Shown here piece after piece: positions 192-64,000 of a stretch of DNA of 64,000 nt. Source of the DNA: Escherichia phage UPEC01. Position numbers and translations under genes: made by a program. Below the pieces are notes generated by a model. The model was not told where the DNA came from. It saw only the letters and a list, made by a program, of their open reading frames with translations, and searched no databases. The stretch lies in the sequence record MW233709; one strand, 5' to 3'. Numbering within the stretch: the first letter of the stretch is position 1; every line of letters begins with the position of its first letter.

Positions 192-249
192 TAAATGGGG
201 CTTCGGCCCCATGGAGTACAAAGTAGAAACTAATATGAGGAAAATAATA

Positions 250-1227
250 ATGGCAACAGTAATTAACGGTTTGACAGTCAACGAATCCGACTTCATGTGG
301 GAACAAAAATACCGCCCAGGTACATTATCAGAGTGTATTCTCCCGGCCCATGATAAAGAAACATTAGAGGCGATTGTTAAAAAAGGTTTGATTCCTAACT
401 TGATTCTGGTCAGTAGTTCCCCTGGTACTGGTAAGACAACAGTTGCAAAAGCTATGTGTGCAGATACGAATTCTGATATGCTGTTTGTTAACGGCTCCGA
501 TTGCCGAATTGACTTTGTGCGTAATGAATTGACTCGCTTTGCATCATCCAAATCAATCGAAGGTCGCCGCAAGGTAATCGTTATCGATGAGTTTGACCGT
601 GCAGGTCTGGCTGAATCACAACGGCACCTCCGTAGCTTTATGGAAGCTTATTCGAGTAACTGTTCAATCATTATGACCGCGAACAATATTGATGGCATCA
701 TCACTCCGTTGCAGTCTCGTTGTCGCGTCATTAAGTTCGGTGAAGCAACTCCGGCTGACCAGACTACCATGATGAAAGAGATGATTCATCGTGCAGTTGC
801 GGTATGTAAAAATGAAGGCGTTGAAATCGAAGACCTGAAAGTTGTTGCTGCTCTGGTTAAGCATAACTTCCCGGACCTGCGTAAGACAATTAACGAGCTT
901 GACCGTTACTCTGCAAAGGGTGTTATCGATTCTGGTATTCTGAGTATCGTGACAAACAATCGCACGCCAATTGATGATGTGATTGATGCCCTTAAGGACC
1001 GTAATTTTAAAGTTCTCCGTGGTCTGGCTCCTAAGCATGCAAATGATTATTCAAGCTTCATTGCAAAGCTGGCTGATGAAATGTATGGCAAACTGACTGG
1101 TGCAAGTATCATCCGCATGTATGAGATTGTAGGTGAGAATAATCAGTATCATGGCATTGCGGCCAATACCGAAGTTCACTTGACTTATCTGTTTGCTCAA
1201 CTGGCTGGGGAAATGAAATGGCTGTAA
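250..1227 (+). CDS. 44: clamp loader large subunit gp44 (AAA+ ATPase)
   Basis: Walker A SPGTGKTT, EQKYRP, SRC motif (QSRCRV); start moved to ATG 250 (MATVINGL) with GAGG RBS; ORF track 151 start is an unlikely N-terminal extension. Confidence 0.95.
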   Translation: MATVINGLTVNESDFMWEQKYRPGTLSECILPAHDKETLEAIVKKGLIPNLILVSSSPGTGKTTVAKAMCADTNSDMLFVNGSDCRIDFVRNELTRFASSKSIEGRRKVIVIDEFDRAGLAESQRHLRSFMEAYSSNCSIIMTANNIDGIITPLQSRCRVIKFGEATPADQTTMMKEMIHRAVAVCKNEGVEIEDLKVVAALVKHNFPDLRKTINELDRYSAKGVIDSGILSIVTNNRTPIDDVIDALKDRNFKVLRGLAPKHANDYSSFIAKLADEMYGKLTGASIIRMYEIVGENNQYHGIAANTEVHLTYLFAQLAGEMKWL

Positions 1228-2468: not shown

Positions 2469-5183
2469 ATGCAAGAATTTTATTTAACTATCGAACAAAT
2501 CGGTGACAACCTACTCGAACGATATATTGACAAGAATGGTCATGAACGTGTTCGTGAAATCCCTTATGCTCCATGCTTGTTTATGCACGCCCGCGAAGAC
2601 CAAGCTGCAAAGTATACAGACATCTATAATAAAGGTTGTGTGAAAAAAGAATTCGATTCCATGCGTGATGCATCCCAGTGGATGAAGCGAATGAATGACA
2701 TGGGTCTCGAAGCTATGGGTATGGACGACTTTAAACTCGCATACTTGTCCGACCGTTACCCACACGAAATCAAATATGATTCAAGTAAAATCCGTGTTGC
2801 TAACTTCGATATCGAGGTGACATCTCCTGATGGGTTCCCTGAACCGTCTGAAGCACGTCACCCTATTGACGCCCTGACGCACTATGATTCGGTAGACGAT
2901 AAATTCTATGTCTTTGACCTTTTGGGCTCACCATACGCCACTGTGGAGCAATGGTCTATTGATATTGCTGCTAAGCTGCAGGAAGACGGTGGTGATGAAG
3001 TCCCGGAAGAAATCCTGGAAAAAATTGTTTATATGGCTTTCGATTCAGAAGAAGAAATGCTCCAGCAGTATTTGGTATTCTGGAACGAGAAAACTCCGGT
3101 TATGTTAACTGGTTGGAACATCGAGAAGTTTGATATTCCATATATCTACAACCGCCTTAAAAATGTATTTGGTGAAGCTACAGCAAAACGTCTGAGCCCA
3201 CATCGTCGTACAAAAGTTAAGGTCATTAACAACGGCTTTGGCGAAGAACAAGAAATCATTCAGATTCTGGGTATCTCTGTTCTGGATTATCTGGACCTGT
3301 ATAAAAAGTTCAGCTTCACAAACCAACCGTCTTATTCGTTGGATTATGTTGCGGAATCTGAACTGGGTGTTGGTAAACTCCCGTATGATGGCCCGATTTC
3401 TAAACTGCGCGAATCAAATCACCAGCGGTATATTTCTTATAACATCATCGACGTTTATCGTGTTGTGCAGATTGACCGTAAGCGACAGTTTATTAACCTG
3501 AGTCAGTCAATGGGTTATTACGCAAAAATGCAGATTCAGTCTGTATTCAGCCCAATCAAAACTTGGGATGCGATTATCTTTAACAGCTTGAAGACTCAAA
3601 ACAAAGTTATTCCGGAAACCAAATCGCATGTTCGCCAATCGTTCCCTGGTGCATTTGTTAAGGAACCTATTCCGAACGCATACAAATATGTAATGAGCTG
3701 TGACTTAACATCTCTGTATCCGAGCATCATCCGACAGATTAACATCAGTCCAGAAACGATTGCCGGGTCATTTGCGCCAGCCCAGATGTATGAATACATC
3801 GCAGGAACTGCTGACCGTCCATCTGATACATTTAGTTGTGCTCCAAATGGTATGATGTATTTTAAAGATGTTGCGGGTATTATTCCGACAGAAGTCACCA
3901 AGGTGTTTAATCAGCGTAAAGAGCACAAAGGCTATATGCTTGCGGCTCAACGTAATGGTGAACTGATTAAGGAAGCTCTGCGTAATCCAGGAACTGGCAC
4001 AACCGAACCAGAAGTTGATTATCGTCATGACTTTGATGACAATATGAAAACGACCCTGCATGGTCTGAATCAAACAGTCCTAAATGGTATGCTGTACAAA
4101 GCGCAGATGGAAGAAGTTGCAGGCATGACCGCACAGATTAACCGTAAACTGCTTATCAACAGTTGTTATGGCGCTCTGGGTAATATCTGGTTCCGTTACT
4201 TTGACCTGCGAAATGCAACCGCGATTACATCTTTCGGACAACTTGCACTGCAGTGGATTGAGCGTAAAGTTAACGAATACTTCGATAGTGTTTGTGGTAC
4301 AAGCGGTGAAACTTATGTGTTCTATGGCGATACTGACTCCATTTATATCCAGTGCGATAACCTGATTAAAAAGGTTGGTGGCGAATCTAAATTCCGCGAT
4401 ACAAACCACCTGGTTGACTTCATGGACAAGTTTGCGAAAGACCGTCTGGAACCGGCAATCGATAAAGCTTTCCGTGAGCTGGCTGAATACATGAACAACA
4501 AACAGCACCTTATGTTTATGGACCGTGAGGCGATTGCATGTCCTCCGCTGGGTTCGAAGGGTGTGGGTGGATTCTGGACGGCGAAGAAGCGTTATGCGTT
4601 GAACGTGTACGATATGGAAGGCACACGTTATGCTGTTCCAAAATTGAAAATCATGGGTCTGGAAACTCAAAAGTCGAGTACTCCAAAGGCATGTCAGAAA
4701 GCTCTGAAAGAATGCATCCGCCGTATGCTGCAAGAAGGTGAAGAATCTCTGCAGACATACTTCAAGGAATTCAATAAGGAATTTAATGAGCTTAACTACA
4801 TGACCATCGCAGGGGTATCATCGGTTAACAACATCCAGAAATATAATGAAGGTGGTTTCCCTGGATTTAAGTGCCCGGCTCATATCAAAGGTGTGCTTGC
4901 ATATATGCGTGCAACTAAAGGTCTGAAGACTGTTCCGCAAATCATGGAAGGGGAAAAGGTGTATGTACTTCCTCTTAAAGTCGGCAACCCATTTGGTGAA
5001 ACCGTGATTGCATGGCCATCAGGGATTGAACTCCCGATTGAAATTCGTGACCAAGTCTTGCAGTGGATGGACTACAACACACTGTTCCAGAAGACTTTTG
5101 TCAAACCGTTAACAGGTTTCTCTGAAGCTGCAAAGGTTGATTACGAAAAGAAAGCAACTCTTTTTGATATGTTTGACTTTTAA
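2469..5183 (+). CDS. 43: DNA polymerase gp43 (family B)
   Basis: 904 aa; exonuclease and polymerase motifs incl. YGDTDS, KKRYA, SLYPSII. Confidence 0.97.
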   Translation: MQEFYLTIEQIGDNLLERYIDKNGHERVREIPYAPCLFMHAREDQAAKYTDIYNKGCVKKEFDSMRDASQWMKRMNDMGLEAMGMDDFKLAYLSDRYPHEIKYDSSKIRVANFDIEVTSPDGFPEPSEARHPIDALTHYDSVDDKFYVFDLLGSPYATVEQWSIDIAAKLQEDGGDEVPEEILEKIVYMAFDSEEEMLQQYLVFWNEKTPVMLTGWNIEKFDIPYIYNRLKNVFGEATAKRLSPHRRTKVKVINNGFGEEQEIIQILGISVLDYLDLYKKFSFTNQPSYSLDYVAESELGVGKLPYDGPISKLRESNHQRYISYNIIDVYRVVQIDRKRQFINLSQSMGYYAKMQIQSVFSPIKTWDAIIFNSLKTQNKVIPETKSHVRQSFPGAFVKEPIPNAYKYVMSCDLTSLYPSIIRQINISPETIAGSFAPAQMYEYIAGTADRPSDTFSCAPNGMMYFKDVAGIIPTEVTKVFNQRKEHKGYMLAAQRNGELIKEALRNPGTGTTEPEVDYRHDFDDNMKTTLHGLNQTVLNGMLYKAQMEEVAGMTAQINRKLLINSCYGALGNIWFRYFDLRNATAITSFGQLALQWIERKVNEYFDSVCGTSGETYVFYGDTDSIYIQCDNLIKKVGGESKFRDTNHLVDFMDKFAKDRLEPAIDKAFRELAEYMNNKQHLMFMDREAIACPPLGSKGVGGFWTAKKRYALNVYDMEGTRYAVPKLKIMGLETQKSSTPKACQKALKECIRRMLQEGEESLQTYFKEFNKEFNELNYMTIAGVSSVNNIQKYNEGGFPGFKCPAHIKGVLAYMRATKGLKTVPQIMEGEKVYVLPLKVGNPFGETVIAWPSGIELPIEIRDQVLQWMDYNTLFQKTFVKPLTGFSEAAKVDYEKKATLFDMFDF

Positions 5184-5216
5184 GTGTTTACAACGGCAAT
5201 GGATTGCCGTATGATT
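5184..5216 (+). promoter_or_regulatory. early-type promoter (GTGTTTACAA ... TATGATTA)
   Basis: -35-like GTTTACA and -10-like element with ~17 bp spacer upstream of imm-like ORF. Confidence 0.45.
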
Positions 5217-5252
5217 ACCCCATCAACTGATGAATAACTTGAGGATATTAAA

Positions 5253-5495
5253 ATGGAAACATTAATTGCGGGTACTGTTGTTCTTGGTGCAGGTTCTTTC
5301 TTCCTGGCTGCACTGGCATATTTTCTGCCGTGGATTATCGCGCTACTGCGTGGAACCAAAAGTAATTGCGGAATCTTCTTTGTTAACCTCCTGTTAGGTT
5401 GGACAATGGTCGGATGGTTTATTGCATTTATCTGGGCACTCGTTGCTGAACGTAAATCAAACGCACAAGTAATTATCATCAAGGAATCAAAATGA
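5253..5495 (+). CDS. imm: superinfection-immunity-like small membrane protein (Imm-like)
   Basis: 80 aa, two hydrophobic segments, motif LLLGWTMVGWFIAFIWAL typical of superinfection immunity family; T4 imm position next to gene 43. Confidence 0.55.
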   Translation: METLIAGTVVLGAGSFFLAALAYFLPWIIALLRGTKSNCGIFFVNLLLGWTMVGWFIAFIWALVAERKSNAQVIIIKESK

Positions 5496-32354: not shown

Positions 32355-32384
32355 GTGTACATCAGTATGGAGTCTATGTATAAT
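32355..32384 (+). promoter_or_regulatory. early-type promoter
   Basis: AAAAAGTAGTGTACA ... TATAAT then leader GATTCCATACTGAGTTAC. Confidence 0.5.
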
Positions 32385-33330: not shown

Positions 33331-33572
33331 AACTTTTTAAAGACATTGCAGTTGGTGAAAAATTTGTCCTGGGTAATGGTCAACAACTGATTCGCATTTC
33401 GCCTTTAATGGATAACAGTGAGCGCCCTGTGCGTACTGAAAACTGTTTGGATTATCCTTTTTATCAGAAACGTTTTGCAATTGAAAATAATACTGAGTGC
33501 TTCACAGTTGATGAACTGATGGAATCATCAGAAGAAGTTGACTTGTGGGATGGCGCGGTAGATGTAGAATAG
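33327..33572 (+). CDS. hypothetical protein (81 aa)
   Basis: ATGA-coupled ORF. Confidence 0.45.
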   Translation: MKLFKDIAVGEKFVLGNGQQLIRISPLMDNSERPVRTENCLDYPFYQKRFAIENNTECFTVDELMESSEEVDLWDGAVDVE

Positions 33573-33601
33573 TGTACAAACTCATGGGAGCAGAGTATAA
33601 T
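33572..33601 (+). promoter_or_regulatory. early-type promoter
   Basis: GTGTACAA ... gggagcagagTATAATgttccc. Confidence 0.5.
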
Positions 33602-33639
33602 GTTCCCGTGGATAATAAAATTTAATTGAGGAAAATATT

Positions 33640-33984
33640 ATGTCTAAAGTATTTTTTGGTAATCGCAACATTATGTTCTTTAAACAGATTAGCATATCAG
33701 AAGCATTTGATTTAAGTTATTCAGGTGGTACAAAAGCTGTTAACCTTAAAAATTTGATGTCTGCAGAATTTGCATTCTATCAGGACCCTGAAACTGGTTT
33801 CTATAAATTTATTAAGTTCCGCATGACTATGGACCGCGATTATCGCGATGTTTATTATACAAGTTATGAAAGTGTTGTGAATGCAATTCGTGAAGCTTAT
33901 GGGTTGGATTCGTTGTCTCTTGACCGTCTGTATAATGCAAGCCTTTACACCAGTGGATTTATTTTAGAACAACTACAAAAATAG
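33640..33984 (+). CDS. hypothetical protein (114 aa)
   Basis: ORF with GAGGAAAA RBS. Confidence 0.5.
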   Translation: MSKVFFGNRNIMFFKQISISEAFDLSYSGGTKAVNLKNLMSAEFAFYQDPETGFYKFIKFRMTMDRDYRDVYYTSYESVVNAIREAYGLDSLSLDRLYNASLYTSGFILEQLQK

Positions 33985-34013
33985 TGTACAAACTCTTGGG
34001 GTCAGAGTATAAT
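33984..34013 (+). promoter_or_regulatory. early-type promoter with -10 inside palindrome
   Basis: GTGTACAA ... ggggtcagagTATAATgacccc. Confidence 0.5.
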
Positions 34014-34057
34014 GACCCCACTGGAGCACAAAACTTTAACTTACTGAGGAAATTAAT

Positions 34058-34507
34058 ATGACTACTTACATGACCCGTCGTGACGTACTGAATGCTGGTG
34101 CTACCACTGTTGCTTATATCCATAATGGTAATTATGTTGCCGGTCGCCCAACTAAAGAAGCTATCGCTCAACCAGGTTTTTATTTCGTGGTTAAAGGTGA
34201 AGGCGAATCACGTATTGTTGCTGCACGTTTTTATGTTGGTAACCAACGTTCACAACAAGGGTTTGACACTGTATTAAGTCACATCCGCAAACAACGTTCA
34301 CAATTGTCTCGCACAATGGCGAACAATGGTGTTATCTATGAAGTCCTGTTTGTTCCAGTTTCTAAAATGAAACCCCTGACAACTGGTTATGGTAAAGGTC
34401 AAATTGCGATGGCGTTCACTCGCTCACATAGTTCTGATTGCCAGACCCTTTCAGAAATGAATCGCATGCTTGCTGATAACTTTAAATTCATTCTGCAGAG
34501 CTATTAA
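34058..34507 (+). CDS. hypothetical protein (149 aa; Ndd candidate by size/position)
   Basis: T4 ndd (151 aa) lies between denB and stp/ac; sequence not verified. Confidence 0.4.
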
Positions 34508-34508
34508 T

Positions 34509-34682
34509 ATGAGACATTTCTTTACAATGGGTTACCTATTTGTTTTAGCCCTATTTGTTATTACAGGAGCCTTTATAGCCTTTGGTGCTCCATTTAATGA
34601 TAAAGTTGCTGTTACTATGTGCTTTAGTGGTGGGTATATCTGTTTTGAACGCTTATGCAAAATGTGTGGTATATATGAGTAA
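34509..34682 (+). CDS. small membrane protein (57 aa)
   Basis: ATG 34509 ([25 protein letters not shown]). Confidence 0.35.
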
Positions 34683-34755
34683 TTTCCATAACGAACATGT
34701 GATGCAATGGCATCGTCATAATCTGAAATTAACCGGCGTCTTCGGACGTCCTTGA
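34675..34755 (+). CDS. stp: Stp-like 26-aa peptide
   Basis: [26 protein letters not shown]; matches my recollection of T4 Stp (26 aa) in sequence, length and position next to ac/52. Confidence 0.55.
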
Positions 34756-34762
34756 GGAAAAT

Positions 34763-34918
34763 ATGAATAAATTTGTTCATGGTGTAGCTTTTTTCTGCTG
34801 GTCATTTTTATTTGTTGGAACATTAATAACTGGTGAAACTTCAGTATTTCTGCAGTCAACAGCTCAAGGTGTATTAGCAGTTTTATCACTATTTAAATTA
34901 TTGGATAAAAATGATTAA
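34763..34918 (+). CDS. small membrane protein (51 aa; ac-like by size/position)
   Basis: GAGGAAAA RBS; hydrophobic. Confidence 0.4.
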   Translation: MNKFVHGVAFFCWSFLFVGTLITGETSVFLQSTAQGVLAVLSLFKLLDKND

Positions 34919-35051
34919 GAAAATCCTGGGCTACTCGTTAGCCCTTGCTGCCTTATTGGTGGCGCTGTATTACGGAGTTGTGTTTGCGTTAGTGCAGGTT
35001 GTGCTTTTTATTTCTGATGCTATAATGGCGGTACATTCGTTAATCTGGTAA
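34911..35051 (+). CDS. small membrane protein (46 aa)
   Basis: overlapping ORF, hydrophobic. Confidence 0.3.
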   Translation: MIKKILGYSLALAALLVALYYGVVFALVQVVLFISDAIMAVHSLIW

Positions 35052-35059
35052 GGTGATAT

Positions 35060-36439
35060 ATGTCTGACGTTTTAAGTATGATGTCCAAACAGTTCAGTGA
35101 TTCCATGGGGACCCTTAACCCCCGCAGTCTAAAAGACATTATTGATGTGGAAGCATTGTCATATGCTATCTACACTGTGGAAGGTCGCGCCATCCCAAAC
35201 ATGATTGATGGTTTTAAACCAGTTCACAGATTTGTTATGGCGAGAGCATTAGACCTGGCGCGTGGTGATAAGAATAAATTCCATAAGGTTGCCTCCATTG
35301 CAGGTGGCGTAGCTGATTATGGTTATCACCATGGCGAAGCATCAGCGGAAGAAGCAACTTCTGGTCTGGTCGCAACATATAAAAATGAATACCCCATGTT
35401 TGATGGGCAAGGCAACTTTGGTTCCAGAATGGTGCCAGAAGCATCATCAGCTCGTTATGTATTCGCACGGGTTTCAAAGAACTTTTATAACTTGTTTAAG
35501 GATACAGAATATGCTCCGGTCCATCCTGATGAAGAACATAAGCCTCCTGCTTTTTATCTTCCTGTTATTCCTACTGTATTACTTAACGCCACTTCTGGGA
35601 TTGCTGTTGGCTTCGCTACTGATATTCTTCCTCATTCGTTCCAGGACGTCAAGGAAGCTGTTAAAGCTATCGTGGAAGGTCGTGAGCCGGTTGCTCCGAA
35701 AGTAAAATATCCAGAATTCCGCGGTAAAGTGGTTGAGCTGGAAGAGCCTGGTAAGTATGAACTTCATGGCACATACAAAATGACCTCCAGGACCCAAATG
35801 GAAATTACTGAAATCCCGGTCCAATGGAACCTGGAAAAGTATACAAGTAAAATCCTGGACCCGCTGGAAGAGAAAGGTTTTATCACCTGGAAAGATAACT
35901 GCGGCGAGCATGGTTTTGGGTTTAAGATTAAATTCCGCAAAGAATACAAGTTGGATGGTACCGAAGAAGAAAATCATGAAAAAATCATGAAAGACTTTGG
36001 TCTGATTGAGAAGCTCTCCCAGAACTTAACAGTGCTTAATCACAAAGGCAAGCTGGCTGAATACACCAACACGCTTGACCTGATTCGCGATTTCGTTGAT
36101 GTCCGTAAGACTTATGTTCAAGTGCGAATTGACAGTAAGATTAAAGAAACTGAAGCAGCATTTAAACTGGCCCGGGCAAAAGTCTTCTTTATTAAAGAAG
36201 TGATTGACGGTAAGGTTGTTATCCAGGGGAAACCTCGTAAGAAGTTGATTGAGGAACTCCAGGCGAGTGAAATATATGGCGATTATGCAGAGAAGTTAGT
36301 GGCGATGAACATCTACCATATGACCTCTGATGAAGCCAAGAAGCTTGCAGACGAAGCAAAGGCTAAGAAAGCTGAGCATGAGTACTGGAAGACAACTGAT
36401 GTTAAAACTGAATACCTTAATGATTTGGAGGCTCTATGA
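35060..36439 (+). CDS. 52: DNA topoisomerase II medium subunit gp52 (GyrA-like)
   Basis: 459 aa; KPVHRFVMARALDL breakage-reunion region with catalytic Tyr context. Confidence 0.93.
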   Translation: MSDVLSMMSKQFSDSMGTLNPRSLKDIIDVEALSYAIYTVEGRAIPNMIDGFKPVHRFVMARALDLARGDKNKFHKVASIAGGVADYGYHHGEASAEEATSGLVATYKNEYPMFDGQGNFGSRMVPEASSARYVFARVSKNFYNLFKDTEYAPVHPDEEHKPPAFYLPVIPTVLLNATSGIAVGFATDILPHSFQDVKEAVKAIVEGREPVAPKVKYPEFRGKVVELEEPGKYELHGTYKMTSRTQMEITEIPVQWNLEKYTSKILDPLEEKGFITWKDNCGEHGFGFKIKFRKEYKLDGTEEENHEKIMKDFGLIEKLSQNLTVLNHKGKLAEYTNTLDLIRDFVDVRKTYVQVRIDSKIKETEAAFKLARAKVFFIKEVIDGKVVIQGKPRKKLIEELQASEIYGDYAEKLVAMNIYHMTSDEAKKLADEAKAKKAEHEYWKTTDVKTEYLNDLEAL

Positions 36440-36534
36440 GTTTTGGAGTTGAGTTTGCATTGCTTTGTATTTTCGCGGCAATCGCAGGTGTGATTGTTGG
36501 TATGTTTATTGGTAATAAGATAGATAAAGACTAG
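36436..36534 (+). CDS. small membrane protein (32 aa)
   Basis: ATGA-coupled to gp52 stop. Confidence 0.3.
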   Translation: MSFGVEFALLCIFAAIAGVIVGMFIGNKIDKD

Positions 36535-36555
36535 GACCCTTCGGGGTCCTTTTTT
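36533..36555 (+). terminator. intrinsic terminator hairpin
   Basis: aggacccttcggggtcctttttt. Confidence 0.65.
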
Positions 36556-36569
36556 ATTTTAAAAAAGTA

Positions 36570-36599
36570 GTGTACAAACCCCTTGTCTTAGGACATAAT
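36570..36599 (+). promoter_or_regulatory. early-type promoter
   Basis: AAAAAAGTAGTGTACAA-N16-CATAAT then GATTCCATACTGAGTTAC. Confidence 0.5.
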
Positions 36600-36648
36600 G
36601 ATTCCATACTGAGTTACACAATGAATCACAAAAACTTTGGAGAATAAA

Positions 36649-36864
36649 ATGTTTACTGCACAACAGAATGAAGGTCAAGAATACATCAACGCTAAATTCA
36701 AATCTAACAAAGAAGCTTGCTATTATTACTTTGACATGTTCAAACTGGCAAACTCTAAAGAAGAACGTAAACAAGCAATTGATGTGATTGTTTCTACTTC
36801 CCATATGAAACGTACTGTGGTACAATCATATGCATCAAATTATATGAAATCTATTAAGGGATAA
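36649..36864 (+). CDS. hypothetical protein (71 aa)
   Basis: ATG 36649 after GGAGAATAAAATG leader. Confidence 0.45.
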   Translation: MFTAQQNEGQEYINAKFKSNKEACYYYFDMFKLANSKEERKQAIDVIVSTSHMKRTVVQSYASNYMKSIKG

Positions 36865-61473: not shown

Positions 61474-61884
61474 ATGAAACAAATCGCTGATGAATACAGT
61501 TTTATAAAATACGCGGAGTTAGAGTTAGTCGATGGTAAAATCCCTATTCTTACTCTCGCGAACAAGAAAAATGTTATCTATGCTATTTCAGTTGATGATG
61601 AACTAGTGTATATTGGTAAGACGAACAACCTTAAGAAGCGTATCAACTATTACCGGACTGCGATTAACCGAATCGACCAGACGAGCGATTCAAACAAATC
61701 CCGGATGATACATGAAGCTTTACAAGAAGGTAAAAAGGTGGTATTCTATGCACGACAATGTTTCAATCTGTCAATGACCAATGAACTTGGCACAATGTCA
61801 GTCGAAACGATGTCTCTGGAAGAGCCGATGTTCATCAAGCTTTTTAATCCCCCGTGGAATTACCAACATAAGGTGAAGAAATGA
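61474..61884 (+). CDS. denA: endonuclease II (DenA), GIY-YIG family
   Basis: 136 aa from ATG 61474; VIYAI...VYIGKT (GIY-x9-YIG), ...ARQCFNLSMTNELGTM...FIKLFNPPWN as T4 DenA. Confidence 0.8.
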   Translation: MKQIADEYSFIKYAELELVDGKIPILTLANKKNVIYAISVDDELVYIGKTNNLKKRINYYRTAINRIDQTSDSNKSRMIHEALQEGKKVVFYARQCFNLSMTNELGTMSVETMSLEEPMFIKLFNPPWNYQHKVKK

Positions 61885-63017
61885 TTGAATTATATGATAA
61901 CTTAATGAAGCTTTGCGCCGAATCCGATAAAGGTAAGTTTTTCTATACGGATTTTGTTTCTCCATTTGAAACTAAGTTCCGCATCTTTAGCTATAACTAT
62001 GCTTCCTATAGTGATTGGCTTCTTGATGATGCGCTGGAGTGTCGTGGCATTATGTTTGAAATGGATGACAATGGTCCAGTTCGCATTGCCGCCCGTCCTA
62101 TGGAAAAATTCTTTAATCTGGGTGAGAATCCAATGACCATGGACCTTAACCTTGATGAGGTTGTCCTGGTTACTGCAAAAGCTGATGGTAGCTTGGTTTC
62201 TACTTATATGGACCAGACTAATATCGCCTTTAAATCCAAAGGGTCAATCAAAAGCTCCCAAGCTGCTGAATCCTTGCAGGTGTTTAAACAAGAGCATCGC
62301 AGTGCATTCAGGGCTCGCGTAACTGAAATCACTGAAGCTGGTTATACATGCAATATGGAATATGTTGCACCAACCAACCGCATTGTTTTGCCTTACCAGG
62401 AACGTGACCTGATTTTACTGAACGTTCGCCATAATGAAACTGGTGAATATATTCCTTATCAGGAACTGTTCAAAGATGCTGCGCTCCGTCCTTTCCTGGT
62501 TGAAGCATATGACCCGGCGAGCATTGAGAATGTTCGTGGTATGAAAGAGATTGAAGGCTTCGTCTATGAGCTGGCAAGTGGTCAGAAGTTCAAGATGAAA
62601 ACAGAATGGTATTGTGCTCTGCATCATACTAAAGACTCCATTAATAATAATGAGCGACTGTTTGAAGTTGTTGTTGCTGGCGGGGCAGATGATGTTATTG
62701 CCATGTTTACTGGCGATACTTATGCTCGCGAAAAAGTTAATGCCTTTACTGTAACGCATCTGGATTATCTGTCCAATACATTGGGATTGTTGCTTGATGC
62801 TCAGAAACAACTGGCAGGAAAAGACCGACGCGAGTTTGCGATTAAAGGTCAAGAGTTGTGCAAACCATACCCGGGATTGTTCTCCGTATTAATGAACACC
62901 TATCAACGCCCACAGGAAACTGAACAAACGATTGCTCAAATCAATAAAGTTTTCCTTAAAAATCATAAACTTTACATTCCGTCGGACTACCAAGCGGAAG
63001 TAATCCTTCCTGAATAA
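61881..63017 (+). CDS. 63: RNA ligase 1 / tail fibre attachment protein gp63
   Basis: 378 aa; FRIFSYNYASYSDWLL.DALECRGIMFEMD, nucleotidyltransferase lysine motif KADGSL. Confidence 0.9.
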   Translation: MIELYDNLMKLCAESDKGKFFYTDFVSPFETKFRIFSYNYASYSDWLLDDALECRGIMFEMDDNGPVRIAARPMEKFFNLGENPMTMDLNLDEVVLVTAKADGSLVSTYMDQTNIAFKSKGSIKSSQAAESLQVFKQEHRSAFRARVTEITEAGYTCNMEYVAPTNRIVLPYQERDLILLNVRHNETGEYIPYQELFKDAALRPFLVEAYDPASIENVRGMKEIEGFVYELASGQKFKMKTEWYCALHHTKDSINNNERLFEVVVAGGADDVIAMFTGDTYAREKVNAFTVTHLDYLSNTLGLLLDAQKQLAGKDRREFAIKGQELCKPYPGLFSVLMNTYQRPQETEQTIAQINKVFLKNHKLYIPSDYQAEVILPE

Positions 63018-63027
63018 TAAAAAAGGG

Positions 63028-63056
63028 GTGTACAAGCCCCTCCTTTCTATACATAA
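63028..63056 (+). promoter_or_regulatory. early-type promoter
   Basis: GGGGTGTACAA ... CATAAT then GGTTCCATCAACTACTGATGAGGA leader. Confidence 0.45.
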
Positions 63057-63088
63057 TGGTTCCATCAACTACTGATGAGGACTAAAAC

Positions 63089-63322
63089 ATGTTAAACTTA
63101 ATTACAAATGAAAGAGTTACACAGGCATATGGTGACAGTAATGACGGAATCTATGTCTACAAGGGAGACCGCCGGATTGGTTTCATTACTGACCTGAAGG
63201 CCAAATTGTTAAAAGAACTGAAAGCTCAAACAGGTGATTCTGGGTTTAGAGCAAGAGCCAAAAAGAAAGATGAACGCCTGGGTGCCAACTCTTTTGGTCC
63301 CCGGGGTTACAACCGCTACTAA
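63089..63322 (+). CDS. hypothetical protein (77 aa), paralog of N-terminus of next ORF
   Basis: YGDSNDGIYVYKGDRRIGFITDLKAKL vs YGDRHDGIYVYKGTKKIGLMTDLRKKL. Confidence 0.45.
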   Translation: MLNLITNERVTQAYGDSNDGIYVYKGDRRIGFITDLKAKLLKELKAQTGDSGFRARAKKKDERLGANSFGPRGYNRY

Positions 63323-63335
63323 TGAGGAAAATATT

Positions 63336-63839
63336 ATGGATATGCAACTGATTTCAAATGAAATGATTGTCAATGAATATGGTGACCGTCATGACGGAAT
63401 TTATGTCTATAAAGGGACCAAGAAAATTGGTCTCATGACTGACTTGCGGAAAAAACTCGCCTCCGATAAAAAGTTGAAGGCGAAACAAAAAGAATATCGT
63501 GATAAAAAATCAGAAGAGCGGAAAGAAGCACTGCATGAATCTGTTCCTGAAATGGTTGACTTCTTAAAGAACCATTTGGTTAAATATGATGCAGAAGTGT
63601 TCATCAATCAGACCCAACCTAATGTGCATATCAATGGATGTGTTTGTTATGTTGTGGTTGAACCCCTGACACTTCAACACCGTCTGGGAATTAAACACCC
63701 AGTGTTGACCCAGGATGATATGGCGGATGAAGTTGGTAATCAGTTCCGCATTTCAGCATCTGACAGTACAAATCACATCCTCCTGAATGGTTTATCCCAG
63801 GATGATATTGTTGAGGTAATCATCAAGTTATGCAAATAA
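63336..63839 (+). CDS. Alc-like protein (by size and position)
   Basis: 167 aa from ATG 63336 (same length as T4 Alc), directly after gene 63 as in T4; sequence unverified. Confidence 0.45.
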   Translation: MDMQLISNEMIVNEYGDRHDGIYVYKGTKKIGLMTDLRKKLASDKKLKAKQKEYRDKKSEERKEALHESVPEMVDFLKNHLVKYDAEVFINQTQPNVHINGCVCYVVVEPLTLQHRLGIKHPVLTQDDMADEVGNQFRISASDSTNHILLNGLSQDDIVEVIIKLCK

Positions 63840-64000
63840 GTAATCTCACTGCAGGGCTTATGCTCGCCCTGGTAGTAACTGCTGGTAGTGGTTTCTATCT
63901 AAAAGCAAAAGTGGATAATCTCAAGACAGCGGTGGCGGAAGTCACCAAAGTCGCAGAAGATAATGCGAAAAATCTACAATCAGTAAAAGACCAGGTTAAT
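63830..64000 (+). CDS. i-spanin-like protein, N-terminal fragment (3' end outside window)
   Basis: N-terminal TM helix LTAGLMLALVVTAGSGFYL followed by coiled-coil-like sequence; T4 pseT.3 position. Confidence 0.35.
   Translation, partial: MQISNLTAGLMLALVVTAGSGFYLKAKVDNLKTAVAEVTKVAEDNAKNLQSVKDQVN

Follow-up and report, generated by a model that had tools for sequence, protein, structure and literature searches.

The stp locus and its neighbours

The sequence analysed here is a 64,000-nt stretch of Escherichia phage UPEC01 (MW233709), given as one strand and referred to below as the window. Its stp gene occupies 34675..34755 on the + strand and consists of 26 codons plus a stop, with the ATG at 34675 and the TGA at 34753..34755. 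The gene belongs to a block in the order ndd, ORF57, stp, ac, 52.1, 52, all on the + strand. This arrangement is syntenic with T4 (which is read on the opposite strand): stp has the same place, between ndd and ac/52.1/52, and the same orientation in the early gene block. UPEC01 differs from T4 in having one added gene, ORF57, between ndd and stp.

Immediately upstream, ndd (34058..34507, +) encodes the nucleoid disruption protein (PF06591, E 8.5e-69), which is 60.5% identical to T4 Ndd. It is followed by ORF57 (34509..34682, +), which encodes a small hydrophobic, Cys-rich protein matching phrog_5941 (E 1e-22). Downstream of stp, the ac homolog (34763..34918, +) encodes the acridine-resistance small membrane protein (BLASTP against T4 Ac 38%, E 3e-8; phrog_2501). 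The 52.1 homolog (34911..35051, +; PF24129, E 5e-20) is 87% identical to T4 gp52.1, and gene 52 (35060..36439, +), annotated in relatives as the topoisomerase II medium subunit, is 66.7% identical to T4 gp52.

Upstream of ndd, 33985..34013 (+) is a promoter-like box of the T4 early type (TGTACA-17-TATAAT, 10/12, a consensus match only), which probably marks the start of an ndd-ORF57-stp-ac-52.1-52 transcript. A terminator-like hairpin with a T-run follows gene 52 and a small ORF at 36533..36550 (+). Both are consensus matches only, and together they fit the delayed-early expression reported for T4 stp (PMC3014915). On this model, stp would be transcribed early from the box upstream of ndd, as part of the ndd-ORF57-stp-ac-52.1-52 message. 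The box is also one of a set: a conserved box of roughly 50 nt, AAAAATAGTGTACAAACTC...GTATAATG, is present in five + strand copies (starts at 32356, 32943, 33573, 33985 and 36571), each of which is similar to T4 early promoters and stands ahead of a cluster of small genes, the 33985 copy being the one upstream of ndd.

Around the stp ORF, the DNA shares 98.7% identity with Escherichia virus TH41 and 96-98% with other Gaprivervirus-type T-even phages, and the last 2.1 kb of the window (61881..64000) matches TH41 at 100%. The window phage is itself of the Gaprivervirus type, with TH41 as its closest relative.

Identity of the stp gene

Stp is a stand-alone peptide of about 26 aa, and the UPEC01 ORF has exactly this form. 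As a reference we used the annotated T4 stp gene (NC_000866, 165505..165585), whose product (NP_049878) belongs to PF08133, the 'Anticodon nuclease activator family'. The two peptides are of the same 26-aa length and are identical at 20 of 26 residues (77%), including all of residues 1-11 as well as R14, N16-K18 and G21-R25. The six substitutions from T4 to UPEC01 are F12W, Y13H, N15H, T19L, K20T and Q26P. UPEC01 Stp matches the PF08133 profile over residues 1-25 of 26 with 55.3 bits (cut-off 25, E 4.4e-15; T4 Stp itself scores 75.3 bits) and PHROG 6763 with E 2e-19. This similarity to T4 Stp far exceeds chance, and together with the syntenic position it identifies 34675..34755 as a true stp ortholog, i.e., a T4-type gene.

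The gene is also already known. A tblastn search of the phage collection with Stp hit 969 phage records, with an identity of no less than 99% in 39, and the RefSeq peptide of the Gaprivervirus VR25 (YP_009210023.1), which is annotated as Stp, is 100% identical to that of UPEC01. The same holds for the other Gaprivervirus copies compared (VR20, VR26, TH41 and ECML-359), whose DNA differs at synonymous positions only. Family and phage lineage are thus both known for UPEC01 stp, and RefSeq already has an annotated copy that is identical.

An earlier note on this DNA had proposed a 26-codon ORF here that matched T4 Stp in length and sequence and lay next to ac and gene 52. Its ATG and TGA positions and its translation agree exactly with ours, the alignment and profile searches bear out the match (with residues 1-11 identical), and ac, 52.1 and 52 do follow stp in that order.

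ORF57 and the translation of stp

Between the end of ndd and the ATG of stp, UPEC01 has 167 nt more than T4 and VR25, an insertion that encodes ORF57 (57 codons). The ORF57 product, a membrane protein, has a hydrophobic N-terminus and is rich in Cys, and phrog_5941 carries no assigned function. ORF57 homologs are found in 218 phage records, mostly those of Klebsiella T4-like phages, and in every locus inspected (six: the window, Sf24, Klebsiella phage EI, CHI14 and VR5, plus listed annotations) the gene directly follows ndd. The two small genes were seen in several combinations: stp alone (T4 and VR25), both genes (the window, TH41, ECML-359 and Tequatrovirus Sf24), and ORF57 without stp (Dhakavirus VR5, Klebsiella phage EI and Serratia phage CHI14). 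The insertion varies even among phages with an identical Stp peptide, being absent from VR25 and present in TH41 and ECML-359. For very small genes, the stretch from ndd to 52 is a presence/absence hotspot.

In T4 and VR25, stp begins right at the end of ndd, its ATG either abutting the ndd stop or overlapping it (overlapping it in T4). In the window and in Sf24, it is instead the ORF57 stop that overlaps the stp ATG (ATGAGTAA), the two genes sharing 8 nt. Because the start and stop overlap in this way, stp is probably translationally coupled to ORF57, in place of the probable coupling to ndd in T4: a ribosome that terminates on ORF57 would reinitiate at the ATGAGTAA overlap and so reach stp. 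No clear Shine-Dalgarno sequence was seen upstream of the stp ATG, so expression of the UPEC01 gene would depend on this coupling.

Coding constraint and alternatives to a working peptide

Stp is better conserved than its neighbours. Its 77% identity to T4 exceeds that of gp52 (66.7%), Ndd (60.5%) and Ac (41.5%), and codons 1-11 differ from T4 by two changes only, both synonymous. We recovered four distinct DNA versions of the UPEC01 allele, which vary at 7 sites, all of them synonymous third positions, and the search brought up no amino-acid variant of the allele. Note that our IMG/VR pattern search fixed codons 3-10, so synonymous-only variation within those codons was not counted; five of the seven variable sites lie outside them, and we used codons 11-26 and the comparison with T4. 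This pattern of substitution shows that stp is under purifying selection.

Of the other reading frames over stp, both sense frames are closed, as are two of the three antisense ones. The remaining antisense frame contains an 82-aa ORF (34532..34780), which we rejected as a gene: it matches no PHROG, and the sites with synonymous variation in stp alter its amino acids.

Codons 21-25 of stp (GVFGR) can fold into a hairpin whose 6-bp stem is capped by a C(UUCG)G tetraloop (34735..34750, +). This hairpin appears in both the MFE and centroid folds, and its T4 counterpart is fully Watson-Crick.

Two alternatives were considered. One is that an RNA or DNA element, e.g., the UUCG hairpin or the translation initiation region of ac, is what has been conserved. 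The hairpin sits directly upstream of the ac ribosome-binding site, and synonymous variants in T-even alleles keep its stem paired via G.U. However, only third positions vary along the whole stp ORF, siphophage homologs retain GVFGK using codons that are unable to form the hairpin, an Rfam search of 33500..36700 found nothing, and the RNA fold of 34630..34770 is no better than that of shuffled sequence (z = 0.27). In T4, moreover, stp was defined genetically by missense mutations (PMC3014915). We rejected the RNA-element explanation on these grounds and give it next to no weight. The other alternative is that stp is a silent relic, left untranslated or decaying when the ORF57 insertion parted it from the ndd stop. 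It draws on the 167 nt that intervene where T4 and VR25 have an abutting or overlapping start, and on the lack of an obvious Shine-Dalgarno sequence ahead of the ATG. Against it, the ndd-ORF57-stp arrangement with the same 8-nt overlap has been kept in another genus, where Tequatrovirus Sf24 has an intact stp of the T4-type allele; two IMG/VR T-even contigs also hold ndd-ORF57-stp with stp intact in each; and variation within the UPEC01 allele is synonymous only. A relic is therefore very unlikely, although slightly less so than an RNA element.

Stp-like peptides in siphophages

Peptides resembling Stp also occur in siphophages, i.e., in other phage families and genome contexts than UPEC01. 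Examples are found in Raoultella phage RP180 (Kagunavirus; MK737937, 43056..43133), where the peptide is identical to T4 Stp at 24 of 25 residues and is unannotated; in PhiKpNIH-2, as gp32 (Webervirus; 2974..3081 of the extracted locus); in Seszw_1 (Skatevirus; 3001..3084 of the extracted locus); and in N5822 (Henuseptimavirus; 3001..3096 of the extracted locus). They share the core N-[FYW]-H-N-E-H-[VI]-M-[QR]-[FW]-[YHW], with W12 and/or H13 as in UPEC01, and differ from UPEC01 Stp in their C-terminal tails, with lengths of 25-35 aa. Three of the four exceed the PF08133 cut-off; the Webervirus form falls just below it (23.1 vs 25) and belongs to phrog_28068, 'unknown function'. Unlike UPEC01 stp, the siphophage genes whose starts were inspected (RP180-type and the 35-aa Webervirus-type) have a clear Shine-Dalgarno sequence.

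A polynucleotide kinase gene is also present in N5822, about 500 bp downstream of the Stp-like gene, and in Stevie. Stp-like peptides accompanied by pnk were already noted in 2015 for the T1-like phages TLS and Stevie (PMC4319613), so the presence of such peptides in siphophages is not new. In one metagenomic contig (IMGVR_UViG_3300023038_000081), the Stp-like frame runs on into a 74-aa ORF (232..456 of the extracted locus), which suggests either that the stop codon was lost and the frame fused to the gene downstream or that the sequence contains an error.

tRNA repair genes

In T4, the consequence of Stp activity is repaired by two phage enzymes, Pnkp and Rnl1, and we looked for both. RNA ligase 1 (gene 63, rnlA) lies at 61881..63017 (+), as the earlier note had claimed. 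It matches PF09511 (E 1e-23), PF20819 (T4_Rnl1_C; E 1.6e-41) and phrog_562 (E 1e-137), and its translation has a visible KADG motif I along with nucleotidyltransferase and Rnl1-specific C-terminal domains. The genes around it run frd, td, nrdA, nrdB, denA, 63, alc, which is the T4 order, with alc at 63336..63839 (+).

The same note reported that pseT is absent from the window. Indeed, none is present in the 64,000 nt, but this is due to where the window ends. In TH41, a 301-aa Pnkp ORF starts 952 nt past the position of the window end (Pnkp phosphatase domain PF25109, E 9.6e-57; PF13671, E 3.7e-20) and contains a kinase P-loop domain with GSGKST as well as a DLDGT motif. PSD2001 (99.7% identical) has a 3'-phosphatase/5'-polynucleotide kinase annotated at the same place. 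The search for pseT beyond the window, which the note had proposed, thus succeeded in near-identical relatives, and the copy in UPEC01 itself is predicted from them. Since TH41 shares the final 2.1 kb of the window at 100% identity and has a full Pnkp gene, the heal-and-seal pair (Pnkp plus Rnl1) is very likely complete in UPEC01.

As in T4, then, rnlA and (in close relatives) pseT occupy the equivalent positions, and the comparison indicates that the T4 63-alc-pseT block is conserved and merely cut by the window boundary. Between alc and pseT, TH41 has an Rz/Rz1-like spanin pair and a pseT.1-like ORF (block beyond the window end at 3461..5488 of the extracted locus). No tRNA genes were found in the window, so it provides no bypass by a phage tRNA-Lys.

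Predicted function and allele differences

In prr+ E. coli, activation of the latent tRNA-Lys anticodon nuclease (ACNase) requires T4 Stp, which is also sufficient for it (PMC3014915). Stp relieves restriction by EcoprrI and EcoR124I, which are type IC enzymes, but leaves type IA restriction, and that by EcoKI or EcoBI, in force (PMC3014915, reviewing Penner et al. 1995). By inhibiting EcoprrI, Stp unmasks PrrC, and Pnkp and Rnl1 then repair the cut tRNA (PMC3014915, PMC1484252, PMC12707154). These sources agree with the pathway given in the earlier note, in which Stp inhibits EcoprrI and thereby triggers PrrC.

We consider it highly probable that UPEC01 Stp works as T4 Stp does. Its expression, binding target and both activities are predicted from the T4 system, by analogy with which the peptide would attach to type IC restriction-modification complexes of the host (EcoprrI, EcoR124I), so blocking DNA restriction. 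In the minority of hosts with prrC in a type IC locus, this binding would also unmask the PrrC tRNA-Lys anticodon nuclease, and the resulting damage would be repaired by Rnl1 and by the phage Pnkp, which in the closest relative is encoded just outside the window. The note had gone further and taken the presence of stp to imply interaction with a host Prr system. What the gene shows, judging by its homology, is the capacity for that interaction and not its occurrence: stp is inherited with the T-even backbone, whereas prr is an optional locus of E. coli, with PrrC homologs occurring sporadically (PMC1484252).

The function of T4 Stp resides in its N-proximal 18 residues, and loss-of-function suppressor mutations cluster at residues 4-14; loss of the last 8 codons lowers activity only moderately (PMC3014915). 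Among nine T-even phages compared in 1995, this 18-residue core was nearly invariant (PMC3014915). UPEC01 Stp matches T4 at 15 of these 18 residues and differs at 12, 13 and 15, of which 12 and 13 are in the 4-14 segment. Because F12W, Y13H and N15H are all within the N-proximal 18 residues, full T4-like activity is not guaranteed. However, W12 and/or H13 recur in independently placed Stp-like peptides of Drexlerviridae and Skatevirus phages, as seen in Webervirus (...NYHNEHVMRWHWQKLK...), Henuseptimavirus N5822 and Skatevirus Seszw_1 (MINWHNEHIMQWYRRRIK...), so these positions form a naturally variable patch and are not signs of decay.

A rival reading is that the W12/H13/H15 allele has shifted in specificity, still blocking a type I enzyme but with an altered target range or with weaker or no triggering of PrrC, as an escape in an arms race. 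The substitutions are in or beside residues 4-14, the segment in which mutations of T4 Stp abolish activation of ACNase (PMC3014915). Codons 12, 15, 19, 20 and 26 each have 2-3 nucleotide differences from T4, compared with only the two synonymous changes in codons 1-11, and variation in the Stp family is patterned at exactly positions 12-16 across phage lineages. Set against this, most residues that ACNase activation requires are also required for EcoprrI inhibition (Penner et al., as reviewed in PMC3014915), which makes the two activities hard to uncouple; both F-to-W and Y-to-H are conservative, exchanging one aromatic or ring residue for another; and the lineage retains rnlA and pseT, though both have other roles. 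We regard such a shift as improbable for UPEC01 and T4-like activity as the better prediction. The broader proposal would be that the Gaprivervirus-type allele is an arms-race variant, with a target range or triggering of PrrC-type guards unlike that of T4 Stp, and that positions 12-16 are a specificity patch diversified across T-even and T1-like phages. We hold this to be unlikely too, if by a hair less so. If it were true, type I restriction complexes and the guards that go with them would have shaped positions 12-16 in an arms race.

Significance and annotation

Stp is a textbook example of an anti-restriction factor that is sensed by a guard system (EcoprrI/PrrC), and the UPEC01 copy is a standard one, so its significance beyond correct annotation is small. 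The mechanism by which Stp inhibits its targets was still called unknown in a 2025 review (PMC12707154), and natural alleles vary inside the supposedly invariant 18-residue core, so that they offer a ready set of variants with which to map Stp binding to type IC enzymes.

Genes of this size are easily missed. Because stp is often unannotated (as in RefSeq Sf24 and RP180) or labelled 'hypothetical', small-ORF-aware annotation is needed. In Shigella phage Sf24 (NC_042078), an intact stp at 867..947 of the extracted locus is unannotated in RefSeq, and in many other phage records stp is labelled 'hypothetical protein' or only ndd is shown under the match.
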